From the IMG/VR virus record IMGVR_UViG_3300032299_001015, positions 20,402 through 84,401 of that record: DNA of 64,000 nt; one strand, given 5' to 3'. Under the pieces are notes generated by a model that was not told the DNA's origin, ran no database searches, and saw only the letters and a list, made by a program, of their open reading frames with translations. Positions 19,101 through 45,422 of this stretch are shown piece after piece. Within the stretch, counting starts at the first letter, position 1. Each line of letters starts with the position of its first letter. A program made the translations under genes and the position numbers. The stretch comes from a virus.

Positions 19101-21003
19101 TAGATGTACTTAATTTTCTTAAAGAAGTTTCATATGCAGACATTACCCCAACAAGTCTCTTCATTGCTGTTTCTTGGGTTGTAAAAGATGCTGTAAGATT
19201 GTCTACTCCAAATTTTGCCGCCATAACCTCTGAGTTGAGAAGTTCAAATCTTTCAACTTTAAGGCCAGACATTCTAGCGCCAAGCCTAGTAACCATCATT
19301 CCAAATTTAAGGCCATTGGCAATTAAATTACCAAATAGACCAACCAACATAATAATTGGTCCTGCCAAAGCAGCAATAGCAACACCTAACTTGGCAAAGT
19401 TTTTAATTGGCCCTGGTAAATCTTGGAAGAATCCTGAAAATTTTTGAATGCCTTCGCCAATAAATGAAAGTATTGGAATCAATGTTTCTGTGAGGGCCTG
19501 ACCAATAGGCATGATTGCATTCTTTAAATCTTCCAAGGTTCTTTGGAATTTAACTGCGGTTGATTCTGTGAGAGTTTTAATTTCTTGATTTGCTACTGCC
19601 GCCAAATCAGTAGAACTTTTTGCCGCTAATTCTATTACTGATTGTGTCTGAGATCCTGTTCTTCCAATATTATCAAATAGAGCAGAAACTCTGGCAAACT
19701 GATACTTACCAAAAATTTGCTCAATTACTCTAGATCTTCCAAATTCATCCAGACCATCTAGAGCATTCTTCATAGCATAAATTGTGGGCATTAACTGGCC
19801 CTTATTTGCATCAACAATTCCTACTAAATCTATACCAAACTTCTTAGCCACCTCACTAGCCTGCTTTGTTGGATTAATCAGGGAGGCGAGGCCAGATTTT
19901 AATGCATTCGCTGCTTCTGCGGCTGGGATGCCACCCTCTCGCATAGCCACAAGTAGAGTTGCAAGATCTTTAACATCTCCACCTAAACTTCTAACTACTG
20001 GACCAACTTTAGGAATAGCAGTTGATAAATCTTGAAGAGTTGCAGATGTTTGGTTTTCAACAGCGTTAAGGAAGTTAATTGACTCTGCTAATTCATCTGT
20101 ATTAAGTCTGAATGCTGACTGCAGGGCAAGAGTTGCTTTCATTGCTTCTTGTCTATCTACTTCACCAAGGACCGCCAATCTAGTGGTTTGCTGGACAGAG
20201 TTAATCAGATCTTCGCCTTCTGCTCCAGTTGCAGCAATATCTGCAGCAAGAGCGGCAGTATCTTTAGCAGCGATTCCATAGGTACGAGATATTTCGTAAG
20301 CCAATTGTTGAATTTGTTCTCTCATGCGAGTAGTTGACTCACTAATTGCGCCACCAAGATCAGAACCATAAACCTTTTGGAACCTTGTCAATTCTTTGTC
20401 AAGGTCTCTGAACTGTTTAGAGGCTAAGGCTGTAAACATCGCCAAAGGAATGCTAAATCCAACCATCAGTTGGCGACCAGCCCACTGAGTATTTTTACCC
20501 CAGTTAAGCATAGATGTGGCACCGTTGTCAATTAGTTGATTGAAAATAGAAAATTTTTGAGCAGCCATTGCTGCAGAGTTTCCAGTAGCAGCAATAGATG
20601 TAGGGGTAAGCATCATCATCTGCCCACCGCCCATTGGCACAGAAACAGACTGCTGGTATCTAACTTGCTGTTGAGCAAGTTGCTTCATTAAACTATTTTG
20701 CTTTGTATATCCTGCAACTGCTTCACGGAATGACTCTCGCATAGTCAGGCGGTTGGCAGCAATTTGCTTACCAAAATTTTCTACGGCATTATGAGCCTGT
20801 ATTGTTTTAGCAGTAAATCCACCAATTTGTCCAACACCAGTAGCAAATGTTGCTGCTAGGCTTCTTTGCGCTGAAAGAGCAGATTTATCTAAGGTGTTAA
20901 AGGCAGCACTTAAAGCGCTAATCTGACCAGTAAGTGCTTTAATTTGAGCCTGGGCAGGAGAAAGGTTCGCGTTATATGTAATAACTGAATTAATATTAGC
21001 CAA
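13177..21003 (-). CDS. tape measure protein with C-terminal amidase_2 and lysozyme/SLT-like domains
   Basis: 2608 aa; TP901-like TMP core; coiled coil; HHTAG..EVES..HKDW amidase motif; IAMRESGG..GIFQLN transglycosylase motif. Confidence 0.92.
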   Translation of the reverse strand: MANINSVITYNANLSPAQAQIKALTGQISALSAAFNTLDKSALSAQRSLAATFATGVGQIGGFTAKTIQAHNAVENFGKQIAANRLTMRESFREAVAGYTKQNSLMKQLAQQQVRYQQSVSVPMGGGQMMMLTPTSIAATGNSAAMAAQKFSIFNQLIDNGATSMLNWGKNTQWAGRQLMVGFSIPLAMFTALASKQFRDLDKELTRFQKVYGSDLGGAISESTTRMREQIQQLAYEISRTYGIAAKDTAALAADIAATGAEGEDLINSVQQTTRLAVLGEVDRQEAMKATLALQSAFRLNTDELAESINFLNAVENQTSATLQDLSTAIPKVGPVVRSLGGDVKDLATLLVAMREGGIPAAEAANALKSGLASLINPTKQASEVAKKFGIDLVGIVDANKGQLMPTIYAMKNALDGLDEFGRSRVIEQIFGKYQFARVSALFDNIGRTGSQTQSVIELAAKSSTDLAAVANQEIKTLTESTAVKFQRTLEDLKNAIMPIGQALTETLIPILSFIGEGIQKFSGFFQDLPGPIKNFAKLGVAIAALAGPIIMLVGLFGNLIANGLKFGMMVTRLGARMSGLKVERFELLNSEVMAAKFGVDNLTASFTTQETAMKRLVGVMSAYETSLRKLSTSNPALFVPGVAPAPRGAVPIRRQAGSTRPEFVPGSGRGDKIPAMLEPGEFIVNRAATEKYAPVLMQMNRGTLKGYENGGGTSRLAHLTRSVTVPITSAMDSATSGARRVLQQMLADGITEVKLFNNLVVSLSKATNDALNTEVEGKGVKKSILAAELKDRERWSLMMKATGLSFDQLQPTITGITSAMARLEGELINDPQLYRLVEAELVKLSNAGDIAAQRLLALSKQYGTVEYLRTNEGKERPGRMALGVSTSGTGTYKGSRLAADSWARKSTVDLERALDEGVVRAIQSSSPSKKADSIGEKAGKNIGNGAIIGLERGLRIATSKQVRTGPIGPGLESRSTATVYQREENARKLLEKALIKETQQTGLIADTKQRIVVQQKQHNIVLANWTKDLETGRWVHKDGTVAGTKRAAALDKLAQEESLLAAEEKKLRDIISIRERAERNAANAAESKAIAEKQLNQSIVKRSVQEGTMFTPGSYLMGGVSPYAASGANRPSRFGDISMDQRKALAAQRREAYLNNVGPGKSLTDARGSGGMRGAGAMNAAMGASMLASTVTMFSGATSEASSKIMMFTTALTTAIFALQAFSGTGIGGGIVGGVKKMGGGMAGLGARATAAAAGRGALTAGLLGGGGKALTGIGGALAGGGAAAAGTVAAVAIPLVITAAGLYMYKKSLDEAKEKANAAFAEPAKTAEFFGKTIDSLGSALENIQAAGASKELSSINSELRMAVSEDYAGLIEKLKTSVTTVGAADLGAAYTKMIISGMSAQEAQDAIKAISAEAGYKGGIAFASAFSNGLLEAKTIEEAYQQTVDNISPESVAGQQTAASEAMRQQAIDNPGLYGRSTPQVASRNFKNVLAGGPEFVQALKSSIEISQTAPELVAQNLDKIRESYLALNEDAGDILGMGTSAREMAFDEFKNMMGELDDPVINQLLDQLQNSTAETQALAIQMTALGVPLTEAKNAAGQFDDALARAAIENASRLATLNAALDDTKQALLDFADSSPITIAMDDISESVDKMQDKIESYAKSREKEKESIQENFELEQKAREDSLEAMQDEMDIKKESFDEEMDQLDEKSDKIEKSSDAYIKSLQKNQKADSFYAQQRNTAFGALQKLASGDVFGFLQDREQMSQDAQQFSYDEQISGIEERRDLELEAIDETRSEKQKEQEEYEKMMQDRMDSIQDLMDKESEMHETNMKNYDDETEKHNEELERRLENRSSKNQEAKDIIDGIKNGEIESYKEVTKVFGEQLAKRYADLVKNQIASLDAVLKQQVAAGDIERLDAEKQLVQMYNDLFGAAYFGGTPTSNSGYGGVGSYEDLRGKLGLSSFLPPIPKKNLPNVAYGGYISGPGGPKSDVIPAMLSNGEYVVQASSVSKYGKDMMDTINAGKFADGGPVELKKSLDKWIPKNRLSYYSSWDQYGSWPGGKPSGIMMHHTAGVGPGVLEWMARNPEAGKPVVQAMVGRDATAHILAYGGTGWGAGAGGTEGSYAAEIFNNKEYAGLKEDLKNLGGASNTLWQIEVESQGLKKDFTAGMFDTIARMSAAIKEYAGWPSFDGKIINHKDWAAASGPNRPNGQRGDTLYPLGLYQSNADRIWEQGGGETSETNRGETSETNNGGSGASSVQITPSIAAPKKGLFGILSMAGTPVSDKQSNSNNNGSTNEPTGNIQFSNIPDGYTVEDANRTLGHIRAGGWPTNLQRLAWSIAMRESGGRNIYDTGDYGIFQLNKPSYGSQPWWISDDKILNDPVYNSSVAYKNVSQSGKNFLPWAMRVDNNGNYSWDWSYYNPRPTWADATETRTAAFWNSWKYKASGGIMKLSAGGGAVSGPGGPRSDMIPAMLSNGEYVVKASSVAKYGKGFMDQVNAGQFGMGGLATTAPRMVSPAKYAGGGFVGSMSTATPTFGVPQVETINPSSMNANIANSYGGSNSSSVRNSSKVNIVINGAGGKSSNAIANKVISMINQANGRRNHSRSAG

Positions 21004-31458: not shown

Positions 31459-31839
31459 TCAATTCCAGTCAATATCTGATCCAGACTTAGCATATGATTT
31501 TGATGATAGTAATAGGTCTTTACCAATATGTTGAGCCTTTACCTCAAAAGAATATTTTCTTTCCCCGCTATTTGTATCTATCCATGAAGTTTCTTTAATA
31601 ACTCCATTAACAATTACTTGCTCCCCGCGATTAAATTCACCAGCAATATTTTCTGCCAGCCGATCCCAAGCAGTAATATTCCAGCCAGATGTATCATGGT
31701 CTTCCCACTCACCAAAGGCATTCTTACGGCGGTCATTAGTAATTAGTCTAAATCTTGCTACTGACGTTCCACTCGGCAGAGTCTTAAACTCTACATCATT
31801 TGCCACTCTACCAATTAAAGTAATATTAGGGTTAGACAT
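31459..31839 (-). CDS. ssb: single-stranded DNA-binding protein
   Basis: ITLIGRVAND..TLPSGTSVARFRL..AWDRLAENI..GEQVIVNG; acidic/aromatic tail. Confidence 0.9.
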   Translation of the reverse strand: MSNPNITLIGRVANDVEFKTLPSGTSVARFRLITNDRRKNAFGEWEDHDTSGWNITAWDRLAENIAGEFNRGEQVIVNGVIKETSWIDTNSGERKYSFEVKAQHIGKDLLLSSKSYAKSGSDIDWN

Positions 31840-32804
31840 TATTCTCCTTCCGTTAAAATTTCAAAAAGTCTATTCCATTCTTTTGCTCTACGCTCCCAGT
31901 TATAATACTTATTGAAGTAGTCTGACTGTTCGCGTATTAATTCTTGATTATCTTTTGTCCAGTAATTATCTATTTGTTCGTTAAGAAGTTCTGCATATGT
32001 ATTAGCGATTTGCTCTTCATTTGGTTTAATTATACACATTTTTGCATATGCTGCACCAGTTTCTGGTAAAGCCCCGACATCAGTAGTAACTAAGTTACAT
32101 CCTGCTGCGCCTGCCTCAATCATTGACAAGCAGGCGGTTTCTTCAAAAATGCTAGGGTAGGCAAATATGTGAGCATCTTGTACTGCTTTATGAATTTCAT
32201 TATTTTCGGCGTACCCAATGTAATTGACACCTTTTGTCTCACGGGCGCGATTGAATAGATCTTCATATACCCCATAATAATGTGCCTCGTAGCCTGATCC
32301 ATATACAGAAGTTGATGAATATACATCTAACTCAATATCATCGCGGTCAAGTTGCTCCATAACATCTAGCAAAATGCTAAGACCCCTAAATGGAGTTGAT
32401 GTGTAAATTAACTTTAACTTGCCACCTTTTGATTTTGGTTTAAATTCTATTGGTTCTATGGCATTACGAATAACATATGCATTATGAAGCGGAACCTGAA
32501 AGAGATACCTAAATTTCTCTAGTTGCCAATGTGACACATAAACTGTTGCATCAATAGACTTCATAAAAGCATTATCCTTCATTGGAGCAAGAGACTCATC
32601 TGAATAGTTTAGATGCTGCCATAAAATATTCTTTTTAGTAAATCTAACTTTAGATGGGTCTGGAGTTGCAACTAATAAATTTAAATTATCATACTCTGAA
32701 AATTTAGAATGTTTTATCATTCCGTCTTTTAGTAATTCCGTCCCGCCTCGTGCAGGCTTTACGTTGCTGTCATTAGAAATTCTTTGTAACCAATCAGCCA
32801 TCAT
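31839..32804 (-). CDS. GT-B glycosyltransferase (GT4-like)
   Basis: GGTE N-terminal motif; YTSTPFRGL; YPSIFEETACLSMIEA (EX7E); start MMADW after GGAGAAG. Confidence 0.85.
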   Translation of the reverse strand: MMADWLQRISNDSNVKPARGGTELLKDGMIKHSKFSEYDNLNLLVATPDPSKVRFTKKNILWQHLNYSDESLAPMKDNAFMKSIDATVYVSHWQLEKFRYLFQVPLHNAYVIRNAIEPIEFKPKSKGGKLKLIYTSTPFRGLSILLDVMEQLDRDDIELDVYSSTSVYGSGYEAHYYGVYEDLFNRARETKGVNYIGYAENNEIHKAVQDAHIFAYPSIFEETACLSMIEAGAAGCNLVTTDVGALPETGAAYAKMCIIKPNEEQIANTYAELLNEQIDNYWTKDNQELIREQSDYFNKYYNWERRAKEWNRLFEILTEGE

Positions 32805-32823
32805 CTTCTCCAAATTTTTGCAC

Positions 32824-33543
32824 TCACAGGTAACTCTTCTTACTCCAGAATTGACTCTTATATGATCTAACAATTTTAGACTTTAACTTAAAACCATTTT
32901 TTTTATTGGCATCCTCATCAAACTCTACCTGTGATGATCTCCAGTCCTCTCTTTTGAAAGGAATCATTTGACATATGGGAGTCCCTGCTTCAAGAACAAA
33001 AATCTCTTCTTTGATTGTGTTAAGAAGTTGGAAGGGAAATTCGACTCCTAGTTCATAGGAGTCTGTATCTACCACCCCAGAAAAAGTTCTGAATGGAAGG
33101 TCGTGTCTATTAAGTGGGTGAGTGAATAAACAACTATAGCCCTTGGGGGTTATTGCCCTCCAGCCAGGACTCCATTTAAGTAAATCCATTCCGCCACCTA
33201 CTGGAGCAGGCAGCCCAGGAGCCTGATCTGGACCGTGAGAGCCTATAAAATTAACATTGGTTGCCCACCGCACATTAATTCCTTTTCCTGGATGATTTCT
33301 AAATTCTAGGTCGAATGGCAGAACAAACATATATCCAGATGTGAGTGCATCAAGGAACGGGGAGCATCCCTTAAGAGTAAGATTGCTTACCGCTACTCCG
33401 TTTTTTGATAACCCAGTTATTTTTTCGCCGTCCATATGAACAGGCATCTTTTTATACCAGCCTGGGATAGACTGTGCTGCTGGCTGCGGCCTTTCAAACA
33501 GAAGTTCTGCCTCATGACTGAATGGCTCAAATTTTATCTTCAT
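32824..33543 (-). CDS. DUF6065-like / dUTPase-like-fold protein
   Basis: LKGCSPFLDALTSGY..TPKGYSCLFTHP..SGVVDTD..GTPICQMIPFKR. Confidence 0.6.
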   Translation of the reverse strand: MKIKFEPFSHEAELLFERPQPAAQSIPGWYKKMPVHMDGEKITGLSKNGVAVSNLTLKGCSPFLDALTSGYMFVLPFDLEFRNHPGKGINVRWATNVNFIGSHGPDQAPGLPAPVGGGMDLLKWSPGWRAITPKGYSCLFTHPLNRHDLPFRTFSGVVDTDSYELGVEFPFQLLNTIKEEIFVLEAGTPICQMIPFKREDWRSSQVEFDEDANKKNGFKLKSKIVRSYKSQFWSKKSYL

Positions 33544-34211
33544 GGCTTTACCCAATTCAACTTAAATGTCTTTTGATGTAGAACTCTTACAGATGGGTCT
33601 ACCCAAATGTCAAATCCTGACTTGATCGCTTTTGTACACCATGAAAGGTCTTCTCCAATAAGAAGGAAATCTTCAGTTGTTTCCCCTGTTTCTTCATCTA
33701 CACTAGGAACGCTTTCTGGTCCAAACCAGGGTCTGGGCATATTCTCAAATACCCCTGATTTTACTGCAAGGAATCCAAATCCACATCCTGCTACTTTAAA
33801 AGGCTTATGATACTGATCAAGAAGTTCTTCTGGCATCATACCGCCGCGAGGTTGTTGATAAATCGGAATGTGTCTGTCTTCCATGAGATAGCATCCAGAA
33901 ATAATTTTCTTATCAGACTTATATAGTCTAAAAACGTCGGCGGGACTCCATGCAATATCTGAATCAATCCACATAATCATGTCATAGGTAAATTCACCGC
34001 TACATGGCTGAGTCATTTTTACATTATTTGTATCGTATCCACCAATGGTTGACTCTCTAGCCATGGCAACAAGTGACCCCCCCTGACTAAGAAAATTCCA
34101 ACTTACCCCCTCTTGATTCAGGGCATTAGTAGTAATAAGCAGACTTCTTAGATAGTCTGGAGTAAAAGAATTTGCTGGAGTAGCAAATACTATATTAAAA
34201 TGCGGTTTCAT
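33540..34211 (-). CDS. GT-A glycosyltransferase (GT2-like)
   Basis: ATP..AR..WIDSDI (DxD)..GFGF..PWF..GEDLSWC..DPSVRVLH. Confidence 0.8.
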   Translation of the reverse strand: MKPHFNIVFATPANSFTPDYLRSLLITTNALNQEGVSWNFLSQGGSLVAMARESTIGGYDTNNVKMTQPCSGEFTYDMIMWIDSDIAWSPADVFRLYKSDKKIISGCYLMEDRHIPIYQQPRGGMMPEELLDQYHKPFKVAGCGFGFLAVKSGVFENMPRPWFGPESVPSVDEETGETTEDFLLIGEDLSWCTKAIKSGFDIWVDPSVRVLHQKTFKLNWVKP

Positions 34212-34871
34212 TTATCCCCTTATAGCGATCTTCTTATGATGACATACTTTTATGCTGGGGTCAAGATAAATTTTATATCCTGCTTCCCCCGCTTTTTTGC
34301 ACCAGGAAAAATCTTCTCCCCAAGGTATATACATCTCTTTAGTTTTATCTTCATTCTCTATTTTTTGAAATACTACGTCGAACCATGGGCGAGGAATATT
34401 TTCAAATACCCCAGATTTCATTGAAACAAATCCGAATCCTACTGCAAAGACCTCAAACGGGTATTCTTTTCTTTTTAATAAGTCGTGGTCAAAATAAATA
34501 TCGTCTTCTTTGAAACTAAAGAGCGGTACGTTTTCTTCATTATAGTAGACTCCAGAAACTACATCGTATGACGATTCGTACAACTTCATAAATTGATCTG
34601 GTTCCCAAGAAATATCTGAGTCTATCCAAACTATTTTGTCATACGTTACCTGACTGTTTACTGGTTCTGTGGCAAAAGCATGAAGAAAACGTGATCCCAT
34701 TATTGTTGCTTCCCGCGCTGCATTTACTTGAGAGGAATACTCATTTAGATATAAATAAGATATGCCTATTTTTTCTAAATGGGAAATAGTTGCAACAAGA
34801 CTTCTTACATATTCTGCCTCCATCATTCTTCCAGGAGTGCAAATTAATACATTATAGTGGGGCTTCAACAT
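34212..34871 (-). CDS. GT-A glycosyltransferase (GT2-like), tandem paralogue
   Basis: Same motifs (WIDSDI, GFGF, GEDFSWC); clearly similar to 33540..34211. Confidence 0.8.
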   Translation of the reverse strand: MLKPHYNVLICTPGRMMEAEYVRSLVATISHLEKIGISYLYLNEYSSQVNAAREATIMGSRFLHAFATEPVNSQVTYDKIVWIDSDISWEPDQFMKLYESSYDVVSGVYYNEENVPLFSFKEDDIYFDHDLLKRKEYPFEVFAVGFGFVSMKSGVFENIPRPWFDVVFQKIENEDKTKEMYIPWGEDFSWCKKAGEAGYKIYLDPSIKVCHHKKIAIRG

Positions 34872-35682
34872 TCCTCCAAAACTCTAATCCATTATATTTA
34901 TTAAGAATATAAGGTGAAAGATATTCACCAATATTTATTCTACGATGCTCAATTGATTGGCGAACGTTGTGTAACCCTTCAATACCGTAGATTCTATCAT
35001 CTTCTGGGGTTATATTAACTATTTTATTATAGTTATGATCAAAGTATTCTAGGCCAAGGAAGTCATAGATGCCCTTGATAGTTTCATCTGTCCTGCCAAC
35101 CAAATTGTCATACTCAACAATGTGAAAATATTGTCTATTTTCTTCTAGCATCGCATAGGCAATTCCATACAAACACTCATCAATAAGTCCTTTTGGACGC
35201 ATCAAATGGTCACATCTAATTTCATCAGGATGGCGGTAGTAATAAAACTCCTGCCTTGCTTCTATTTCCTGATCAATAAATGAAGTCTTCTGTGGATTTT
35301 GATTAATCATATAGATAAAAGAGGCAAGAATTTCATTTATGTTTCTCACCGTCAAAATTACCTTAGGGTCATAGGGGAGATTTCTTAGTAGTGTTCCAAA
35401 GTTTTCTTTTGTTGACCATGATCGTGACTTATCAATAATATTAGGCTTATTTATATCTGAATAATAATTTTCTAGTACCCCATAAACCGTGGGAGAAATG
35501 ACATGAGGTTTTGGGTATGCATTATATTGTTCAGACGCTAAAATACTACGTTCAAGATTAACCATCATCCCACACATGGGGGAGTTTGGTCCTGAATAAA
35601 TTTCTGGGTTTTGATTTAAAATTGATGATAAAAGTGTGCTTCCAGACCTTGGAAGGCCGGAAAGAAAATAAAACTTACTCAA
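34852..35682 (-). CDS. sulfotransferase
   Basis: PAPS-binding loop GLPRSGSTLL; IDKS; VRN..ILASF; YDNLV..IYDFLG. Confidence 0.88.
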   Translation of the reverse strand: MSKFYFLSGLPRSGSTLLSSILNQNPEIYSGPNSPMCGMMVNLERSILASEQYNAYPKPHVISPTVYGVLENYYSDINKPNIIDKSRSWSTKENFGTLLRNLPYDPKVILTVRNINEILASFIYMINQNPQKTSFIDQEIEARQEFYYYRHPDEIRCDHLMRPKGLIDECLYGIAYAMLEENRQYFHIVEYDNLVGRTDETIKGIYDFLGLEYFDHNYNKIVNITPEDDRIYGIEGLHNVRQSIEHRRINIGEYLSPYILNKYNGLEFWRNVEAPL

Positions 35683-35695
35683 TGGTTTTTCCTAT

Positions 35696-38600
35696 CTACT
35701 CTAGGCCAATTATATCATTTACAGTTGATGCAGATACAGGAATTGTGACGGTAGTCCATATAGTTAAATCAGTAGACGAATATACAGCATTAGTTCCTTG
35801 AATTTGATAGGTGCTGCCAAATTTTGCCATTTTTTGTAGGGAATCATTAATTAAAGAATAGGGCAAAGAAGTTCTTAATTTTCCTGTGTTTCCTCCTGCA
35901 ATCCATAGGCCGTTGCCGTAGGCTACGGAGCGGATTAAGGTAGTTCCAAAGTTAGAAGTTTGGGTTGTCCAGGTCACGCCATCGGTGGAGGTGCGAAGTT
36001 GCCCTTGCTCTGCTGATGCTATCCATATGCCATTGCCATAGGCTATGGAGTGGATGGTGGTGTTGCCAAAGTTAGAGTTTTGGGTGGTCCAGGCAACACC
36101 ATTAGTGGAGGTTCTTAGTTGTCCTGCAACGCCTCCTGCTATCCATAGGCCGTTGCCGTAGGCTACGGAGCGGATGCTGGTGCTACCAAAGTTAGAGGTT
36201 TGGGTTGCCCAGGTTATGGTGTCGGTGGACGTACGGATTTGGCCTGTGTATCCGCCTGCTATCCATAGACCGTTGCCATAGGCTACGGATTGGATTTGGG
36301 TGTTGCCAAAGTTAGAAACTACTGATACCCAGGTTGTATTATCTGTAGATGTTGAAATATTTCCTAAAGTAGTTACTATCACCCACCTATTACTATTATG
36401 TGACACAGATGTAATACCGTTTGTAGTTAATCTATCTTCTCCGTCCCAGGTTACGCCATCGGGGGAGGTACGGAGTTGACCTGTGTAGCCTCCTGCAATC
36501 CATAGGCCGTTGCCGTAGGCGACGGAGAGGATCATGCTGTTGCCAAAGTTAGAAGTTCGGGTAGTCCAGGTCACGCCATCGGTGGAGGTGCGGATTTGGC
36601 CCGTTAATCCGCCTGCTATCCATAAGCCGTTGCCATAGGCTACGGAGCGGATGTTGGTGTTGCCAAAGTTAGAAGTTCGGGTTGTCCAGGTAGTGCCATT
36701 GGTGGAGGTACGGAGGGTGCCTGTGTATCCTCCTGCAATCCATAGGCCGTTGCCATAGGCTACGGAGAGGATAGCGGTACCGCCAAAGTTAGAAGTTCGG
36801 GTAGTCCAGGTCACGCCATCGGTGGAGGTTCTCATTTGGCTATCGCTGCCTGACACTATCCATAGGCCGTTGCCATAGGCTACGGAGAAAATGGTGTTGG
36901 TAGAGCCAAAGTTAGAGGTTCGGCTAGTCCAGGTAGTGCCATCGGTGGAGGTTCTCAATTGGCCTCCGCTACTTCCTGCTATCCATAGGCCGTTGCCATA
37001 GGCTACGGAGTAGATAGGATTGCTCCCAATAAAGCCAGAAGTTTGGGTAGTCCAAGTAACGCCATTGGTGGAAGTGCGGATTTGGGCACCTTCCCCTACT
37101 GCTATCCATAGGCCGTTGCCATAGGCTACGGAGCGGATGTTGGTAGCGCCAAAGTTGGAGGTTTGGGTAGTCCAGGTTGTGCCATTAGTGGAGGTGCGGA
37201 TTTGGCCTGTTAATCCGCCTGCTATCCATAGACCGTTGCCATAGGCTACGGAGTAGATTGCGGTGGTACCAAAGTTAGATGCTATTCCACTAGTTCCAAT
37301 ATTAAAGTTTACTGTATTCCAAGTAATGGTGTCTGTGGAAGTTCTACCCTGACCACTATACGCACCTGCTATCCATATGCCATTGCCATAGGCTACGGAG
37401 TAGACGCTGACGCTGCCAAAGTTAGAGTTTTGCGTAGTCCAGGTTACGGTATCGGTGGAGGTGCGGATTTGACCTGCACTTCCTACTGCTACCCATAGAC
37501 CGTTGTTATATCCTACGGAGAATATTACACTATTTCCAAAGTTAGAGGTTTGCTCTTTCCAAGTAGCACCTTGAATTCCCCCAGATGAAGAACTAGCGAA
37601 TACTTGAGTGACCCATGTACTTCCATCTGTTGACCGCCAAAATGTTCCAGAATTTACAACGGCAAAAGCGGTGGAAGCAGTAGAAAACATTCCATTTACC
37701 GCCGTTGGTCCAGATACTGTTGTCCAAGTTTCTGCATTTGTTGAACTTAAAGTAGATGATGCTGATGAAAAGGCGTAAAAAGAATTATTGAAAGAATGTA
37801 ATTTATAGTTATTTGGCAATATTGATGAGTTTTCAGAGGTGCGGAGTTGTCCGGTGCTGCCTCCTGCTATCCATAGGCCGTTGCCATAGGCTACGGAGTT
37901 GATGTTAGTGGCACCAAAGTTGGAGGTTTGGGTAGTCCAGGTTACGCCATCGGTGGAGGTACGGATTTGTCCTGTGTATCCGCCTGCTATCCATAGGCCG
38001 TTGCCATAGGCGACGGAGAGGATGTTAGTGCTGCCAAAGTTGGAGGTTTGGGTGGTCCAGGTTGTGCCATTGGTGGACGTACGGATTTGTCCTGCGTAGC
38101 CCCCTGCAATCCATAAACCGTTGCCGTAGGCTACGGAGGCGATGGTGGTGTTTAAGTTAGAGGTTTGCGTGGTCCAAGTGACGCCATTGGTGGAGGTTCT
38201 TAATTGGCCTGCGTTACCTCCTGCTATCCATAAGCCGCTGCTATAGGCTACGGAGCGGATGATATTGAAACCAAAGTTAGAGGTTTGTGTTGTCCAGGTT
38301 ACGCCATTGGTGGAGGTGCGGATTTCTCCGTCGCCTCCTCCTGCAATCCATAGGCCGTTGCCATAGGCTACGGAAAAGATTCCGAGGATGTTGGTGATAC
38401 TAAAGTTAGAGGTTTGGGTAGTCCAGGTTACGCCATCGGTGGAGGTTCTCAATTGGCCGCCGGAGGCTCCTGCAATCCATAGGCCATTGCCATAGGCTAA
38501 GGAGCGGATGGTGGTGTTGCCAAAGTTGGAGGTTTGGGTTGTCCAGGTGACGCCATTGGTAGAGGTTCTCAGTTGTCCTGAAAGACCTCCTGCAATCCAT

Positions 38601-38911
38601 AGGCCATTGCCATAGGCTACGGAGTTGATGGTGGTGCTACCAAAGTTAGAGTTTTGGGTGGTCCAGGAAACTCCTAATCTATTATATATAGTATTAAATG
38701 TTCCTAAAGATTGTGTTGCTTGAAGTGATCTTAGAACTACTCCATTACTCAATACAGCCGACCAAATGTTATTAGCATAAGCAATAGAAGAAATACTTCC
38801 ACTAGTAACGGCGGGGGAAATAAAGGTAGTGCTATTGGTAGCATCTGGATCAAGGTTTATTGTTGCACTTGACCAAGTAATGCTATTTGTAGAATATCTA
38901 ATTTCTGTCAT
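35696..38911 (-). CDS. beta-propeller (BNR/Asp-box-like) repeat adhesin B
   Basis: 7 + 14 tandem ~40-aa blades; start MTEIRY after AGGCGGTGAT. Confidence 0.8.
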   Translation of the reverse strand: MTEIRYSTNSITWSSATINLDPDATNSTTFISPAVTSGSISSIAYANNIWSAVLSNGVVLRSLQATQSLGTFNTIYNRLGVSWTTQNSNFGSTTINSVAYGNGLWIAGGLSGQLRTSTNGVTWTTQTSNFGNTTIRSLAYGNGLWIAGASGGQLRTSTDGVTWTTQTSNFSITNILGIFSVAYGNGLWIAGGGDGEIRTSTNGVTWTTQTSNFGFNIIRSVAYSSGLWIAGGNAGQLRTSTNGVTWTTQTSNLNTTIASVAYGNGLWIAGGYAGQIRTSTNGTTWTTQTSNFGSTNILSVAYGNGLWIAGGYTGQIRTSTDGVTWTTQTSNFGATNINSVAYGNGLWIAGGSTGQLRTSENSSILPNNYKLHSFNNSFYAFSSASSTLSSTNAETWTTVSGPTAVNGMFSTASTAFAVVNSGTFWRSTDGSTWVTQVFASSSSGGIQGATWKEQTSNFGNSVIFSVGYNNGLWVAVGSAGQIRTSTDTVTWTTQNSNFGSVSVYSVAYGNGIWIAGAYSGQGRTSTDTITWNTVNFNIGTSGIASNFGTTAIYSVAYGNGLWIAGGLTGQIRTSTNGTTWTTQTSNFGATNIRSVAYGNGLWIAVGEGAQIRTSTNGVTWTTQTSGFIGSNPIYSVAYGNGLWIAGSSGGQLRTSTDGTTWTSRTSNFGSTNTIFSVAYGNGLWIVSGSDSQMRTSTDGVTWTTRTSNFGGTAILSVAYGNGLWIAGGYTGTLRTSTNGTTWTTRTSNFGNTNIRSVAYGNGLWIAGGLTGQIRTSTDGVTWTTRTSNFGNSMILSVAYGNGLWIAGGYTGQLRTSPDGVTWDGEDRLTTNGITSVSHNSNRWVIVTTLGNISTSTDNTTWVSVVSNFGNTQIQSVAYGNGLWIAGGYTGQIRTSTDTITWATQTSNFGSTSIRSVAYGNGLWIAGGVAGQLRTSTNGVAWTTQNSNFGNTTIHSIAYGNGIWIASAEQGQLRTSTDGVTWTTQTSNFGTTLIRSVAYGNGLWIAGGNTGKLRTSLPYSLINDSLQKMAKFGSTYQIQGTNAVYSSTDLTIWTTVTIPVSASTVNDIIGLE

Positions 38912-40830
38912 TTTAATCACCGCCTACAAAATATGAAATAAAAGAACCTGCTGATGCAGAGGTTCTCAGTTGGCCTGCGTTACCTACTGCTATCCATAGA
39001 CCGTTGCCATAGGCTACGGAGTTGATGTTAGTGGCACCAAAGTTAGAGGTTTGGGTGGTCCAGGTGACGCCATTGGTGGAGGTGCGAAGTTGCCCTTGCT
39101 CTGCTCCTGCCATCCATAGACCGTTGCCATAGGCTACGGAGCGGATGGTGGTGTTGCCAAAGTTGGAGGTTTGGGTAGTCCAGGTTACGCCATCGGTGGA
39201 GGTACGGATTTGTCCTGTGTATCCGCCTGCTATCCATAGGCTATTGCCATAGGCTACGGATCGGATGTTGGTGCTACCAAAGTTGGAGGTTTGGGTGGTC
39301 CAGGTTACGCCATTGGTGGAAGTGCGGATTTCTGTGTATCCGCCTGCTATCCATAGGCTATTGCCATAGGCTACGGAGCGGATGGTGGTGTTGCCAAAGT
39401 TGGAAGTTTGGGTGGTCCAGGTTGTGCCATTGGTGGACGTACGTAGTTGGCCTGTGTTTCCTCCTGCTATCCATAGGCCGTTGCCATAGGCTACGGAGCG
39501 GATGGGGGTAGCGCCAAAGTTAGAGGTTTGTGTGGTCCAGGTAACGCCATTGGTAGAGGTGCGTATTTCTCCTGTGTTACCTACTGCTATCCATAGACCA
39601 TTGCCATAGGCTATGGAGAATATGTTGGTAGCGCCAAAGTTAGAGGTTTGGGTTGCCCAGGTTATGGTGTCGGTAGAGGTACGGATTTGTCCGGCGTAGC
39701 CTCCTGCAATCCATAGGCCATTGCCATAGGCTACGGGGAAGATATTGGTATTGCCAAAGTTAGAGTTTTGAGTAACCCAAAAAACTCCAGCAGGTTGAGT
39801 ATCACCTCCACCATATTCTACAACTTTAATATTTCCTGTCATTCCTGTATTTACTGAAGTCCAAGATGTTAAATTGGTGGAGGAGAATAATTTTCCATCG
39901 TCCGCCGCCACAAATGTAGTAGATGCTGATGGGATATATTCTATGTCGTTTATTGGGGAATATGCTGATGTATATGTCTGAGGTGAAGTTATAATTTGGC
40001 CTGCGAATCCTCCTGCAATCCATAGGCCGTTGCCATAGGCGACGGAGAGGATACGGGTCGCCCCAAAGTTAGAGTTTCGGGTTGTCCAGGTAACGCCATC
40101 GGTGGAGGTACGGATTTGGCCTGTGTATCCGCCTGCTATCCATAGGCCGTTGCCATAGGCGACGGAGAGGATGGTAGTGCTGCCAAAGTTGGAGGTTTGG
40201 GTGGTCCAGGTGACGCCATTGGTGGACGTGCGGATTTGTCCAGACCGTCCTCCTGCTATCCATAGGCCGTTGCCATAGGCTACGGAGTTTATGTTGGTGC
40301 TACCAAAGTTGGAGGTTTGGGTGGTCCAGGTAGTGCCATCGGTGGAGGTACGGAGTTGTCCGTATTCGCCTCCTGCAATCCATAGGCCGTTGCCATAGGC
40401 GACGGAGAGAATGGCGCTTTCGAAGTTGGAGGTTCGCGTGGTCCAGGTAGTGCCATCGGTGGAAGTGCGGATAGCGATGGACAAAAATTCTGGGGTGCCT
40501 CCTCCTGCAATCCATAGGCCGTTGCCATAGGCTACGGAGTTGATTTGGGTGTTGCCAAAGTTAGACGTTCGGGTTGTCCAGGTAGTGCCATCGGTGGAGG
40601 TGCGGATTTGTCCTGTGTATCCGCCTGCTATCCATAGGCCGTTGCCATAGGCTATGGAGTTGATGGTGGTGTTGCCAAAGTTAGACGTTCGGGTTGTCCA
40701 GGTAGTGCCATTGGTGGACGTACGTAGTTGGCCTGTGGTTCCTCCTGCTATCCATAGGCCGTTGCCATAGGCTACTGAGCGGATGATGGTGGTACCAAAA
40801 TTAGAGTTTTGTGTGGTCCAGGTAACGCCA
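35870..40830 (-). repeat. ~120-bp coding tandem repeats (35 units in four blocks), GC-richer than their flanks
   Basis: Recurring + strand core atccataggccgttgccataggctacggag and ccaaagttagaggtttggg. Confidence 0.95.
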
Positions 40831-41006
40831 GTATTTGCGGGGTCTGGAGTAGTTCCCTGTCCAGTATTAAATCCAGATATTTGAGCGGTAGTGTTAGTTG
40901 AATCAATAGAATAAAGAAGGCCAGATGAGGTGCCAAAGAGGAACTGTCTTACCCCCGCCGATATTTTTTTAGAACTAGAAAGAATACCTACCCAAATACC
41001 ACTCAT
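38913..41006 (-). CDS. beta-propeller repeat adhesin A
   Basis: 7 + 7 tandem ~40-aa blades; follows the fibre gene. Confidence 0.8.
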   Translation of the reverse strand: MSGIWVGILSSSKKISAGVRQFLFGTSSGLLYSIDSTNTTAQISGFNTGQGTTPDPANTGVTWTTQNSNFGTTIIRSVAYGNGLWIAGGTTGQLRTSTNGTTWTTRTSNFGNTTINSIAYGNGLWIAGGYTGQIRTSTDGTTWTTRTSNFGNTQINSVAYGNGLWIAGGGTPEFLSIAIRTSTDGTTWTTRTSNFESAILSVAYGNGLWIAGGEYGQLRTSTDGTTWTTQTSNFGSTNINSVAYGNGLWIAGGRSGQIRTSTNGVTWTTQTSNFGSTTILSVAYGNGLWIAGGYTGQIRTSTDGVTWTTRNSNFGATRILSVAYGNGLWIAGGFAGQIITSPQTYTSAYSPINDIEYIPSASTTFVAADDGKLFSSTNLTSWTSVNTGMTGNIKVVEYGGGDTQPAGVFWVTQNSNFGNTNIFPVAYGNGLWIAGGYAGQIRTSTDTITWATQTSNFGATNIFSIAYGNGLWIAVGNTGEIRTSTNGVTWTTQTSNFGATPIRSVAYGNGLWIAGGNTGQLRTSTNGTTWTTQTSNFGNTTIRSVAYGNSLWIAGGYTEIRTSTNGVTWTTQTSNFGSTNIRSVAYGNSLWIAGGYTGQIRTSTDGVTWTTQTSNFGNTTIRSVAYGNGLWMAGAEQGQLRTSTNGVTWTTQTSNFGATNINSVAYGNGLWIAVGNAGQLRTSASAGSFISYFVGGD

Positions 41007-43708
41007 ACTGTTAAATCACCTATAGCAACCCAAGTATCTGTTCCACGTTTTATTAACGTAGCAGCAGACCATTGACCAACAAGTTTTGTCGCACCTCCGC
41101 TAGAGTTTAGGGTGACACCAGAAACATATGATGCTGTTACTTGTCCTGCACCAGTCTGAAGTATATCAATTTTAGTTCCTGTTGGAAATGCTTGAGTTGA
41201 ATTAAGTGGAATAACTAATGTTATTGGGCTAGCGTTATTTAATTCAACCAAGTCTCCAGCATCACTTAATACTAATGAATAAGATGTTCCAGACTGAGCA
41301 TTAGTAATAATATTCATTGCAGTAGTTATAGAGATCTGACCATTTTGTAAATCGGTTAGTGTAGCGCTTGCCGCACCAGTTACAATTCCTGTTAAATTAA
41401 TTCCAATAATAGGATCGGGTTTATTTGTAACTCCATCCCAATTAATACTAGAGGCACTTGTTGAAAAACTAGTATTTGTTACAATAGATATTTGTCCATT
41501 TGCTAAGTCAGTAAGCGTTGCTGAAGCAGCGCCAGTAGTATTTCCAGTAAGTGAAACCCCTATTACTGGATCTGGTATATCTGTGACTCTGCTCCAATTT
41601 ATAGAAGATGCAGTATTAGCATTTCCTAAAAGAGCGCCTGTAAATGTTTGAGCAGATGCATTACCACTTATAATTGCTGATCCAATTACATGCAGTTCAG
41701 TAACGGGACTAAAAGTACCTATACCAACCCTTTTACTGCTAGTAAGATTTAATACTGGAGTTGGACTTCCTACTGAATCTCCTGTATAAAAAGACATATT
41801 AGATGGAATACCACTAGCAGAACTATTTGCAACTGATTCTACAGTTATATATGAAGAATTTTTTACTACTCCATTAATGTCAGGTCCTTGGAAAATAATT
41901 GTTCCAAGATCCATTCCAATTAGGGCTGCAGATGCACCAGGAGATTTAGAAAATATTAAATACCCTGAATTATCTAAAGCATTAGTATTTCTAATAACAA
42001 GTTGTGGGCTAAATTCAGTTGCCTGAGATAAAATTAAATTACCGCTTAATGTTCCTAAACTTGTTAAACTTGAGTTAACAATAGATGAGGGAAGAGTTGT
42101 TCCTGTAATTAATGAAGAATTAATGGATGATGCTGTGTTAGCATGATTAGCCGTACTTCCAATAGACATATATAATGTAGAGGCAGTGGTTCTAGTTAGA
42201 TATGCCTGAGATGCAGATACAGGAATATATCCAGAAACTATTGCAGCAGATGATGTGACTCTAATATATGCTGATGCTGCATCTGATTGTTTAAGATATG
42301 TAGCGCTTGCTCCAGCGGCATTTTGATAGTATAATCCATGTTGACCATCAAGCATATCTGCGTTAAAGTTAGTGACGGTTACACTTGAAGAAACTTCTAA
42401 TGCTGCTATCTGTAGTACCCCAAATTCTACAGATGGATCTGAATAGTTAATAGTATTATTGACTGCTGCTGGCCCTTTTGAAAGAAGTTTCCATTTATTT
42501 TGTGAAGCATCTCTTGCAAAAGATGTATGATAATGATTTGCAGAAGATGTTGTACCATCGCCATAAGATCCAACTATACCAATATCTACAGCATCTGTTG
42601 TATATTGTTCATGTGCCAGTTGAATAAGTGAGTCTGTAAGTGCTAAGTTTGTTGAAGTAATTGTTGTAGCACTTCCTGTAATAACTAAGTTATTAATATT
42701 AACGGTTCCATGGAACGTTGTTGTTCCCGTTCTTTCTTGGGTTGCACTAGAAGTATTAAGAAAATATGATGCATGTTGACCATCAAGTAAATCGGCATCT
42801 ATTCCTGATCCCGCTCCGTCAACCTCTGTAATAGCCGTTGCAAGATTTTGATTAAACCATACACTAGATGACGCATTGTATGAAATAATGTCATTGTTTG
42901 TAACACTATTTATTAAAACGTCATGTAGTTCACCTAACTCATAACCGTTCTGAACATTAACAAAAAGTTGACCATTTCCAGCATTTGCTCTTTCTACAAC
43001 ACCAATAAAAACTGTATGTTTTGGAGCAGAAGGTTTAACGCTAGTAAATTTACCAGCAGAAGCAGATAACCATAAAGTATCTCCAGGTGAATATGCACTT
43101 AAGTTAAGTTTATCGACAACGCCAAATATAGTAACAAAACCTTGACCTCCTGTTGTTATTGCCTCTGCTACCACCCCTAAACTTTTAGCAGATGTGGAAT
43201 CTGATGTGTTAATTGCTTTTTTAACAGATGCTCTATCTCCTGACGCTCCAAATAAATAAACAACATCACCTTTAACAAGAGGGGAACCTTCAGCATTTGT
43301 TACATATGCATGAACATGCTGTCCGATATGAGCAGTAATGTTACCGCCGATTAAACCAATTTCGGGAGTTCCAAAAGAAGAATTCCATTGGAATCTACCT
43401 ACGCCTAGAGGTACTGTTCCAGAAAGATCAAGGTCTATACCGCCAATAGAAAATATTCCAGAAGCACTTCTAGAAACTAATGTGTTAGGTATATTTAGAG
43501 GAGTTCCAGAGGCTGATCCACCTCCGCGACCGTCACCAACTAGAACCCATGTAGACGCTGAAGACCATGCATATAGGCTACTTGCACTAATCCATAGTTG
43601 TCCAATAAAAGGATTTGATGGTGATGAGGAGGAATAGTTAACAAGGTTAGTAGAATCGCCAACAATAAGGCCGTTCTTAACTTTAAAGTCTTTATCAATG
43701 CTAGCCAA
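41003..43708 (-). CDS. tail fibre protein
   Basis: DKDFKVKNGL start; GSGIDADLLDGQHASY fibre motifs; C-terminal GQWSAATLIKRGTDTWVAIGDL. Confidence 0.8.
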   Translation of the reverse strand: MASIDKDFKVKNGLIVGDSTNLVNYSSSSPSNPFIGQLWISASSLYAWSSASTWVLVGDGRGGGSASGTPLNIPNTLVSRSASGIFSIGGIDLDLSGTVPLGVGRFQWNSSFGTPEIGLIGGNITAHIGQHVHAYVTNAEGSPLVKGDVVYLFGASGDRASVKKAINTSDSTSAKSLGVVAEAITTGGQGFVTIFGVVDKLNLSAYSPGDTLWLSASAGKFTSVKPSAPKHTVFIGVVERANAGNGQLFVNVQNGYELGELHDVLINSVTNNDIISYNASSSVWFNQNLATAITEVDGAGSGIDADLLDGQHASYFLNTSSATQERTGTTTFHGTVNINNLVITGSATTITSTNLALTDSLIQLAHEQYTTDAVDIGIVGSYGDGTTSSANHYHTSFARDASQNKWKLLSKGPAAVNNTINYSDPSVEFGVLQIAALEVSSSVTVTNFNADMLDGQHGLYYQNAAGASATYLKQSDAASAYIRVTSSAAIVSGYIPVSASQAYLTRTTASTLYMSIGSTANHANTASSINSSLITGTTLPSSIVNSSLTSLGTLSGNLILSQATEFSPQLVIRNTNALDNSGYLIFSKSPGASAALIGMDLGTIIFQGPDINGVVKNSSYITVESVANSSASGIPSNMSFYTGDSVGSPTPVLNLTSSKRVGIGTFSPVTELHVIGSAIISGNASAQTFTGALLGNANTASSINWSRVTDIPDPVIGVSLTGNTTGAASATLTDLANGQISIVTNTSFSTSASSINWDGVTNKPDPIIGINLTGIVTGAASATLTDLQNGQISITTAMNIITNAQSGTSYSLVLSDAGDLVELNNASPITLVIPLNSTQAFPTGTKIDILQTGAGQVTASYVSGVTLNSSGGATKLVGQWSAATLIKRGTDTWVAIGDLTV

Positions 43709-43733
43709 GGTTCCCTATCCCCTCGTTTTATTA

Positions 43734-45422
43734 TTATGCATCTATTGCAGTACGGACTGCCTTAATTATAATATTTGTAGATGCAGCATCTGGAGATGAA
43801 CCCGTTAATGATACTGTTCCGCCAGATTCGGTAGCGCTAAATGTTAGATTGGCAGCACCTGTTGCAGCATCCATTATTGAGTATTCTGATAGTGAAACAT
43901 CTGTTCCATCCCACATAACAAGAATCTTTTCTACTGTCATTTTTGTACCCTGCTTTGCTCTTATCGTATATTCAGCGGTGGTGAATGAAGAGACAGCAAA
44001 AGTATCAATTGTTGTTGGGGTACTATTTGCTGTTATTGTGGCGGAAGAAGAAGTAATTCTGCCTTCTGGTAGGTCTACACCAGCAAATGTAGGAGTTGAT
44101 GTAGTAGCAATATTTTGTGGAAGGCTAAGTACAACAGATGCACTTTCTACACCAGATCCTGCGACCAAAATTTGGCTTGGCGTGCCATATATGCCATCAA
44201 CATAGTTGCCTGTGGTATCTGTTCCAAGAGCAATAGAATTTGCAGCAATAGTAAGAGCAATACTTGCACTATCAAGATTGGATACAGTTCCTGTACCAGT
44301 AACATCACCTGTAAAAACAAGATTAAAATCTTTTTCTACAGTTGCAGTCAGTGTACCAGAACCTAGATCTGTTAACGTTACATTGCCTGAAAGGTCTCCA
44401 CCTAGAGTTATTGTTGGACTTGGCTTGCTAAGAATATCTGCCCATTCGACATTGGCATCAATCGTTCCTTTAGTTCCACTAAAAACTTCAGATGAATTAG
44501 TAGCATCTGGAATAAAGGTAAACTTGCCACTAGAATCGTCAAAACCAAAGAATCCAACTTTTGCAGAAGTTCCATTATGGTATCTAAATTCAATGCCGCG
44601 ATCTTTATTGTCATCTAAAGTTGGAGCGGTATCTCCACCAAGAGTAAAGATTGGATCATCAATAGTAACTACTGTTGAATTAATAACTACTGTAGATCCT
44701 GAAATAACAAGATTTTCACCAACAGTTAGTGATCCCGCAATAGTTACATTATCTGGAAGACCAATTTGAATATTTCCAGTTGAGGCTGATACAGTAATTT
44801 CATTAGCCGTTCCAGAAACAGATTGAACTCCAGACATTCCAAGAAGTTCAAGTACTGAGTAACCACCTAGATATTGTGAGTTAAGGTTATTAACCTGTAC
44901 AGATGATGAAACTACTAGTGGTGCGCCTGTAAGAGCAGTTGAAGTAATGGTATTGAAGGATACATTTGCTGAAGTGGCTACGTCCTGACCAATTGATATT
45001 GCTGATACAGCACCTTCTCCTGCTGAAGAAGATACAGAAACACCTGTTCCTGCAGAAATTCCAGCAATATAGTTTCCAGTTGTATCTGTACCTAATGCAA
45101 TAGAATTTCCTGCAATTGTAGTAGCAATAGAAATTTGACCATTTCCAAGATTTGTAAGTGTGGCACTAGCAGCACCAGTAATGTCTCCAGTTAATTCAAC
45201 ACCAATTACTGGATCAGGGACATTAGTAATATTATTGAAATCTAGGTAGTAAGAACCATGATTACCGTCTAAAAGATCGGCAGAAAGGTTGCCAACGTTT
45301 GCAGAAGATGTAACAGTAAACGGTGGAAGTGAAGATGTAGTGGATACAATCTGGACGCCTTGAACATTAGCGCCAGCCACCACACCATTCTTAACAACAA
45401 AGTCTTTATTTACAGTAGCCAT
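43734..45422 (-). CDS. fibre / virion structural protein
   Basis: NKDFVVKNG start (as in neighbour); ADLLDG; two IALGTDTTGNY repeats; DDNKDRGIEF. Confidence 0.75.
   Translation of the reverse strand: MATVNKDFVVKNGVVAGANVQGVQIVSTTSSLPPFTVTSSANVGNLSADLLDGNHGSYYLDFNNITNVPDPVIGVELTGDITGAASATLTNLGNGQISIATTIAGNSIALGTDTTGNYIAGISAGTGVSVSSSAGEGAVSAISIGQDVATSANVSFNTITSTALTGAPLVVSSSVQVNNLNSQYLGGYSVLELLGMSGVQSVSGTANEITVSASTGNIQIGLPDNVTIAGSLTVGENLVISGSTVVINSTVVTIDDPIFTLGGDTAPTLDDNKDRGIEFRYHNGTSAKVGFFGFDDSSGKFTFIPDATNSSEVFSGTKGTIDANVEWADILSKPSPTITLGGDLSGNVTLTDLGSGTLTATVEKDFNLVFTGDVTGTGTVSNLDSASIALTIAANSIALGTDTTGNYVDGIYGTPSQILVAGSGVESASVVLSLPQNIATTSTPTFAGVDLPEGRITSSSATITANSTPTTIDTFAVSSFTTAEYTIRAKQGTKMTVEKILVMWDGTDVSLSEYSIMDAATGAANLTFSATESGGTVSLTGSSPDAASTNIIIKAVRTAIDA

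Follow-up and report, generated by a model that had tools for sequence, protein, structure and literature searches.

The subject of this analysis is a pair of adjacent genes, termed A and B, on the minus strand of an IMG/VR virus record (IMGVR_UViG_3300032299_001015; 84.4 kb, CheckV completeness 69%). The stretch analysed, referred to throughout as the window, comprises 64,000 nucleotides (positions 20,402 to 84,401 of the record), and all coordinates are those of the window. Gene A (38913..41006) encodes a protein of 697 residues and gene B (35696..38911) one of 1071 residues when translated from its ATG codon, an alternative GTG start being located at 38920. The genes meet at the sequence ...GGT GAT TAA A ATG ACA, in which a 1 nt spacer separates the stop codon of A from the start codon of B, and the frame of B differs from that of A. 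Both products contain blocks of repeat units, grouped here into five 'satellite' propellers (P1 to P5), and diverged segments between those blocks, considered below as the parts of a 'hub' propeller. From its N-terminus, A carries a short motif, hub blade 1, P1, hub blade 2 with strand A of blade 3, P2, and strand B of blade 3. Protein B continues with the remaining two strands (C and D) of blade 3, then blade 4, P3, blades 5 and 6, P4 and P5, blade 7 and a closing strand.

A regular-expression anchor combined with a hidden Markov model of the unit located 35 repeat units, each a blade of ∼40 residues, in blocks of 7 and 7 in A and of 7 and 14 in B, exactly the arrangement proposed in a preliminary description of this DNA. 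The 14 units of A form P1 (residues 62–345; 39972..40823) and P2 (residues 409–687; 38946..39782). In B, 20 strong units and a single degenerate one occupy residues 82–363 (seven units, P3; 37823..38668) and 450–1019 (fourteen units). The longer block is read as 7+7, that is, as P4 (residues 450–740; 36692..37564) followed in tandem and without a linker by P5 (residues 741–1019; 35855..36691). The third unit of P5 is the degenerate one (residues 821–859), which scores 7.3 bits against 68–86 bits for each strong unit. The count of five satellites given in the preliminary description therefore stands, but the satellites are not placed one per site, since P4 and P5 make up one tandem 14-unit insert and leave four insertion sites. 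Altogether A and B hold 42 blades, 35 of them in the five seven-blade satellites and seven in the hub.

The consensus of the unit is WTTQTSNFGNTNIRSVAYGNGLWIAGGYTGQIRTSTNGVT. Mean DNA identity between units is 76%, and certain pairs lying in different blocks are 97–99% identical, which indicates that gene conversion is still ongoing. Variability is concentrated at five positions of the unit, within NFG-x-T-x-I-x-S and GG-xx-GQ, where H reaches 2.2–2.9 bits; at the other positions H is mostly ≤ 1.2 bits, with a maximum of 1.84. By established propeller topology these five positions would fall in the D-A and B-C loops, which lie on one face.

The consensus also includes RTSTNGVTW or RTSTDGVTW, which can be written S-T-[DN]-G-x-T-W; the canonical Asp-box (S-x-D-x-G-x-T-W) is one residue longer. 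A phmmer search of the PDB returned only the Ycf48-like protein 5OJP, a marginal match (E 0.0094), and a Pfam scan of A and B gave no BNR or PSII_BNR match. Certain relatives carry precomputed PF02012, PF13088 or PF14870 annotation, many are annotated with PF25852, and the source annotation of relatives reads 'photosystem II stability/assembly factor-like'. In whole-protein scoring, A and B exceed the gathering cut-off of Pfam DUF6242 (PF19755; 36.0 and 39.2 bits, respectively, cut-off 29), the best stretch in B being residues 370–436, inside hub blades 5 and 6. Summed scores for Kelch_6 (PF13964) are 51.1 and 43.3 bits against a cut-off of 25.3, with only ∼17–21 residues matched; no single stretch of A and one of B passes. 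Kelch repeats typically form six-blade propellers, whereas the block size here is seven units.

The stretches between the blocks had been described as AT-rich, and indeed the GC content is 0.37 in the hub and 0.52 in the satellites. At third codon positions (GC3) the values are 0.55 for the satellites, 0.21 for the hub and 0.15–0.17 for the neighbouring fibre genes, and the satellite codons favour C-ending triplets for Thr, Gly, Ser and Ala (ACC, GGC, TCC, GCC). Satellites and hub also differ in GC3 in the relatives L003 (0.53 and 0.20), L042 (0.49 and 0.20; the units of L042 are far more diverged) and L006 (0.39 and 0.13). This contrast within single open reading frames (ORFs), replicated in three relatives, indicates that hub and satellites differ in history or in constraint; candidate causes are a foreign origin, biased gene conversion and selection on codons.

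Diverged blades between the repeat blocks

A family alignment of each inter-block segment was compared with two tandem satellite units by profile–profile alignment in HHalign, and all five segments aligned in register with the satellite unit profile. The N-terminal residues 1–61 of A (40824..41006) hold the terminal motif (MSGIWVGILSS..), hub blade 1, of which only strands B, C and D are present, and the linker on the N side of P1 (TPDPANTGV); the segment aligned with a probability of 82% (E 1e-5). Residues 346–408 (39783..39971), which hold blade 2 together with the first strand (A) of blade 3, aligned with a probability of 93% (E 2.5e-7). The boundary between the genes runs through blade 3. 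Protein A ends in its strand B (residues 688–697, SFISYFVGGD; 38916..38945), delimited by the end point shared with A-type relatives (see below), and B begins with MTEIRYSTNSITW.., which supplies strands C and D and leads into blade 4 (residues 1–81; 38669..38911). A688–697 and B1–81 count as one joined inter-block segment, of which blade 3(C,D) with blade 4 aligned with a probability of 96% (E 2e-9). Blades 5 and 6 (B364–449; 37565..37822) gave 96.6% (E 5e-10), and blade 7 with the last strand (B1020–1071, ..STVNDIIGLE; 35699..35854) gave 74% (E 2.8e-5). The inter-block segments thus add up to seven diverged blades and one C-terminal strand. Within this parsing the A-B hairpin of blade 3 is interrupted by P2, a nesting read here at the level of sequence.

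The VNDII strand at the C-terminus of B aligned to strand A of the next blade, and strand A is the element that blade 1 lacks. A first blade without strand A and a terminal strand that matches it together form the Velcro signature long known from closed propellers. The hub ring would accordingly be closed by the C-terminus of B, and A and B would co-fold. The preliminary description had counted seven diverged blades between the blocks, placed the third across the gene boundary and suggested that the TVNDII strand could close the first; each of these proposals is supported by the profile alignments, and the wider interpretation built on them is partly supported.

Searches with hub sequences were less productive as a census. 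Hub blades 5 and 6 gave no match in a word-index search, and jackhmmer runs started from hub segments drifted into the generic blade, which shows homology but is useless for counting hubs.

Split and fused relatives and their cassettes

An exhaustive profile search with B recovered 36,121 cluster representatives with E-values no higher than 1e-3, so that the blade type is very common in metagenomes. The hub is common to three protein classes. B-type proteins start with M..I[RK]YST[DN]..W and end with ..[IV]NDII.. (for example P0085, P0031, P0047, P0052, P0067, P0251 and P0238–P0247). A-type proteins have the N-terminus M.R.KIGIFASS.. or MSGIWVGILSS.. and end with ..Y[FYM][IVL]GG (for example P0092, P0128, P0158, P0186, P0050, P0240, P0248, P0300 and P0303). 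Fused proteins, in which blade 3 is contiguous, show both of these ends (for example P0034, P0042, P0023, P0078, P0018, P0004, P0001, L006–L010/L018, of 1721 residues, and L013). The split point is shared: at least 14 A-type clusters end there and at least 25 B-type clusters begin there. In the fused P0034, P0042, P0078 and L006, blade 3 is one contiguous canonical blade, which in P0034 reads without interruption as INAIKYMQSAYIAGGNNIIRFSTNGISW, and along its 900 residues P0034 is colinear first with a P0128-like and then with a P0085-like protein. Six IMG/VR contigs have a common fused ORF of 1731 codons (1721 residues from its ATG). The hub segments are conserved across distant relatives, and the closing segment, blade 7 and the last strand, is kept in the B-type and fused forms.

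Split pairs are also found outside the window. The metagenome contigs L041/L042 carry adjacent A-type (442 residues) and B-type (499 residues) genes, with a fibre gene before them and the same sulfotransferase-like gene after them. In L042, which represents a distant phage, the two genes overlap in TAATG, whereas the window has TAA-A-ATG, and the frame relation also differs; maintenance of the split with another junction and frame indicates that it is old and not an error. L003, the closest relative and an independent contig that is 86% identical, has the same A|B junction as the window. A scan with B-type N-termini revealed no further split pairs. A +1 frameshift joining A and B was considered and rejected, because GAT-TAA-A offers no plausible slippery site and because the junction and frame of L042 are different.

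The N-terminal motif of A (residues 1–16; 40959–41006) takes the forms M.R.KIGIFASS, MPILGIIASA and MSGIWVGILSS and is kept in all A-type and fused proteins. In the structural model of P0042 described below it is a short helix of low confidence. The motif may dock the protein to the fibre or plug the channel of the hub.

The satellites vary in presence and position. In L003, protein A is without P1 and its linkers, so that blades 1, 2 and 3A are contiguous (..AQITGFNAGGSAINDIEY..), and in protein B one further satellite, of seven units, separates blade 7 from the closing strand (..WTTVTNSSTYSSPDTVNTGVNW[7 units]SPQNTSQINDIIGLE). The stretch of blades 2 and 3A is also contiguous with blade 1 in L042 and in P0261, which looks assembly-collapsed. 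In P0128 and P0034, P1 lies within the hairpin of blade 2, and the blade 3 hairpin, which is the P2 site in the window, is uninterrupted. In L038/L039 a cassette lies within the A-B hairpin of blade 7, with the linkers PDNVNTGSTW...TSPQLY. P3, by comparison, is present in nearly all B-type relatives. A common pair of linkers, PD-x-x-NTG-x-x-W on the N side and TSPQ-x-Y on the C side, flanks the cassettes at several sockets. These differences between close relatives support a description of the satellites as autonomous plug-in cassettes.

The amount of hub sequence, in contrast, is near-constant. In the fused L006 (1721 residues), five seven-unit satellites alternate with hub pieces of 52|59|87|42|66|36 residues, and these pieces parse as seven blades and a closing strand. 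Residues outside the units number 362 in the window, 359 in L003, 342 in L006, ∼353 in P0034 and ∼320 in P0042, a range of 320–362 over protein totals that span 854 to 1768 residues. Every insertion site is either a D-to-A connection or an A-B hairpin. Conventional propeller topology puts these two kinds of loop on opposite faces, and the insertion sites would therefore be distributed over both faces of the hub.

Other phages deploy the propeller differently. In L011, L012, L016, L024, L026–L028, L033 and L034 (IMG/VR), two or three tandem genes are present per phage; each of these genes encodes an N-terminal 'MNKG..' domain, one seven-unit propeller and a short '..GWIK' C-terminal tail. In L015, L017 and L020, fibre N-termini with 'MADKNFKVKNGL' are fused to one or two propellers. 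The MNKG-type genes and the MADKNFKVKNGL-type fibres are alternative deployments of the same propeller module.

Predicted structures and the proposed two-chain hub

Single-chain models of two fused homologues, P0042 and P0034, were generated with AlphaFold2 (AF2), and the window's own satellites were judged by homology. For P0042, 13 fused relatives served as alignment rows. The model contains two satellites (residues 175–446 and 546–820) with predicted local distance difference test (pLDDT) values of 70–94, in which DSSP assigns an outer strand D0, six full blades and then A7B7C7. Their best PDB matches are 7-bladed propellers (Z 26–30, root mean square deviation 2.3–2.7, 260–274 residues aligned), and the model also matched PDB 2YMU over 515 residues. 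In the model each satellite thus closes on itself with seven blades and has its two termini side by side, the arrangement that an insertion cassette requires; for the window, the same is predicted from the same unit and from blocks of exactly 7. In the second half of the P0034 model every hub blade is a four-stranded sheet, with pLDDT values of ∼54–84.

Taken with the profile alignments, we consider it reasonably probable that A and B make one modular receptor-binding assembly, with a seven-blade hub shared by the two chains and satellite propellers plugged into it. The scaffold would be a conserved Asp-box-like hub propeller of seven blades and ∼350 residues including linkers, into which whole self-closing seven-blade satellites would be inserted at the D-to-A loops after blades 1, 4 and 6 and at the A-B hairpin of blade 3. 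Each satellite would begin with strand D0, which would close its own last blade; its two ends would then be adjacent, so that it could fit a loop as a cassette. Protein A would give the hub strands B–D of blade 1, the whole of blade 2 and strands A–B of blade 3, and B would give strands C–D of blade 3, blades 4–7 and a last strand that acts as strand A of blade 1. The two chains would thus be interlocked, sharing blade 3 as 2+2 strands and the Velcro blade 1 as 1+3, and recombination would gain, lose and homogenise the cassettes.

Several observations weigh against this assembly. Both AF2 models leave most of the hub under a pLDDT of 70. In that of P0042 (predicted template modelling score 0.41), blades 2–3 have values of 51–73 and blades 1 and 4 fall below 50, blades 5–7AB (residues 444–552) are unstructured, and the closing strand, although assigned as E, has a pLDDT below 50. 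In the P0034 model the first half is unfolded; this half lacked alignment rows, because MAFFT misplaced A-type and B-type (and hub-only partial) rows on P0034, the satellites attracting each other, and B-type rows alone were used. Blade 4 and the orphaned N-terminal C/D hairpin of that model are built into the neighbouring satellite, with no hub formed, and residues 414–764 best match 8-bladed propellers (Z 29–31.5, ∼300–313 residues aligned). The two models disagree on whether blade 4 joins the adjacent satellite. Furthermore, the relatives without inserts foreseen in the preliminary description were recovered only in part: L003 cleanly lacks P1, but no hub-only relative was found, the hub-specific alignments yielding four IMG/VR loci and the metagenome search three, all with satellites. 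P0269, P0302, P0261 and P0299 were examined as insert-less relatives and rejected, since they have 3–5 units and mismatched hub ends and look like unit-to-unit assembly collapses.

The low confidence, or lack of structure, of the hub in both models is what would be expected if the five satellites were independent, strung like beads, with the inter-block blades as leftover or partial blades, linkers or local packing and with A and B as separate subunits of the fibre. The failure of hub-specific word searches with blades 5–6 fits such an arrangement, as do the many other phages that have single propellers in separate genes (L011, L024, L026 and others). Nevertheless it would leave unexplained why there are always exactly seven hub blades of constant total size whatever the number of satellites, why the first blade and the C-terminal strand complement each other in a Velcro signature, and why the hub segments are conserved in distant relatives and cut inside a blade that is contiguous in the fused forms. 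Half a blade at the end of one chain would make little sense unless a partner completed it. Independent satellites, the main rival reading, are accordingly unlikely but deserve to be kept in mind.

A second alternative takes the 8-bladed matches of P0034 residues 414–764 at face value, so that hub blades would be recruited into adjacent satellites and no separate hub would exist. This is improbable. The P0034 model had no rows for, and left unfolded, the half with strands A–B of blade 3, and the eight-blade ring is not reproduced in the P0042 model, which has 7-blade satellites at the same position. The bookkeeping also fails, as 42 blades equal 5×8+2 and the extra satellite of L003 adjoins only a single closing strand, and cassettes between complete blades change no hub blade number. 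Finally, a mis-assembled repeat array, or a frameshift error dividing one gene, hardly merits belief, for although metagenome assemblies do collapse such repeats (as P0269, P0302, P0261 and P0299 appear to be), the junction is identical in the independent contig L003, the split recurs in L041/L042 with another junction and frame, dozens of protein clusters begin or end at the split point, and six IMG/VR contigs have the same fused 1731-codon ORF.

Fibre context and significance

The virus is an uncultured, siphovirus-like freshwater phage, with a 2608-residue tape measure protein, a portal and a prohead protease, and its capsid protein is ∼41% identical to those of Wakanda-type Streptomyces phages. 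Its host is probably a low-GC freshwater actinobacterium, a guess based on these capsid relatives and on a match to 'Actinomycetia phage DSL-LC01', in which a single propeller lies downstream of collagen-like fibres. A megablast comparison of the region with GenBank phages gave no match, and tblastn gave distant matches only, to single propellers.

On the minus strand a ribonucleotide reductase gene is followed by a gene for a 1071-residue structural protein, two fibre-like genes (562 and 901 residues), A and then B. The 901-residue fibre-like gene (41003..43708, minus strand) was recognized by PHROG tail fibre and minor tail protein matches. As the preliminary description had it, the propeller genes directly follow this fibre gene, its stop codon overlapping the start of A within ATGA (junction sequence GTATGAGTGGT). 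Its C-terminal domain (..QWSAATLIKRGTDTWVAIGDL.., ∼120 residues) is fused to single propellers in P0026, P0046, P0105 and P0148 and ends blade-carrying proteins there and in L032, L040 and L042, which suggests that the propeller and the ..QWSAATLIKRGTDTWVAIGDL.. domain are alternative or combined tips of one fibre system. The 901- and 562-residue fibre genes (41006–45422) have a common internal repeat, ..PDPVIGV.LTGD/N.TGAASATLT.L.NGQISI.., and very AT-rich third codon positions.

On the 3' side of B follow a sulfotransferase-like gene, two GT-A-like genes, one unknown gene and one glycosyltransferase (GT) gene, and beyond these, on the minus strand, an unannotated ORF of 282 residues and then the portal and head genes. 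The sulfotransferase-like gene (phrog_27463) and the GT-A-like paralogues (phrog_1574) occupy 31839–35682, directly 3' of the propeller genes. The order of fibre gene, A, B, sulfotransferase-like and glycosyltransferase genes is kept in five other phage contigs, L038, L040, L041/L042 and L043. The sulfotransferase-like gene comes directly after the propeller gene or genes in L038, L039, L041, L042 and L043; in L040 two GT-A-like genes come directly after the propeller gene, without a sulfotransferase-like gene between. This synteny hints at a functional link, such as glycan modification, whether of the fibre or of the host's surface. Within the repeat array itself, alternative-frame ORFs of 64–79 residues (38406–38600, 39043–39237, 40069–40263 and 40289–40528) are by-products of the periodic sequence and no genes.

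The overlap with the fibre gene, the kept synteny, the fusion of satellites to fibre domains (P0026, P0046, P0105, P0148) and the one-face variability all suggest host binding. The pair is accordingly likely to serve as a fast-evolving device for host binding, the binding itself being deduced from genomic context and from the placement of the variable positions. Variation within each blade at the five D-A and B-C loop positions, on one face, would give a multivalent and quickly changeable ligand-binding surface at the fibre.

Propellers completed in trans are known from Sec13–Nup145C and Seh1–Nup85, in which the partner chain provides an open six-blade propeller with a complete additional blade. 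The proposed hub resembles them as one closed propeller made from two polypeptides, but would differ in that the cut passes through blade 3 (2+2) and the Velcro blade 1 (1+3), and in that fused and split forms occur in one family. The Asp-box propeller of Ycf48/HCF136 (PDB 5OJP) and DUF6242 resemble A and B in the ∼40-residue blade, an S-x-D-G-x-T-W-type C-D turn and seven blades; A and B differ from them in a motif one residue shorter than the canonical one, a sequence match that is marginal, a fibre context without a photosystem link, and a putatively nested arrangement of multiple propellers. Fourteen near-identical repeats form two seven-blade propellers in PDB 2YMU, a model for the tandem of P4 and P5, but there as a plain tandem that is not inserted in another propeller.

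Insertion of one propeller into another has been seen in the solved structure of Trm734 (PMC6847430), where BPB, itself complete with seven blades, is inserted in BPA between strands c7 and d7 and a terminal strand completes the blade of a distant propeller, so that the propeller-in-propeller principle is already known. Trm734 and the DDB1-type triple WD40 clusters share with A and B a complete propeller placed between strands of another's blade, although that placement is here read from sequence. They are single-chain eukaryotic scaffolds with WD40 blades, one level and one insert, whereas A and B have Asp-box-like blades, four sites with five satellites, inserts in A-B hairpins as well as D-A loops, variable cassettes and a host propeller that would consist of two polypeptides. 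As the Pfam scan of A and B gave no WD40 match at E up to 1, the pair would work like the nested WD40 clusters without being a member of them. In phages, the phi11 receptor-binding protein and the K1F endosialidase (PMC4901313, PMC13564897) likewise have a propeller as host or glycan recognition module (a role that is putative here) beside fibre genes; there each chain of a trimeric spike has one propeller of five or six blades, and nesting, cassette arrays or a split are not known from them. A literature search found phage receptor-binding propellers, none of them nested or split.

Should the hub be real, it would be the most elaborate natural domain-in-domain nesting of propellers, with five or six satellites against one in Trm734. 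A two-chain propeller cut inside its blades, present in fused and split forms within one family, would moreover be a natural experiment on fragment complementation and propeller evolution, and the hub-plus-cassette design could inspire scaffolds for multivalent display. Whether A and B amount to a plug-board protein, in which a two-chain interlocking hub cut at blade 3 and at the Velcro blade offers loops on both faces to recombination-swappable propellers with their own linkers and codon usage, is a proposition on which the evidence is evenly poised. If it is correct, closely related phages would differ by which sockets are filled, with the five loop positions per blade as a second layer of variation, and host range would change through the insertion or deletion of whole binding domains at defined sockets.

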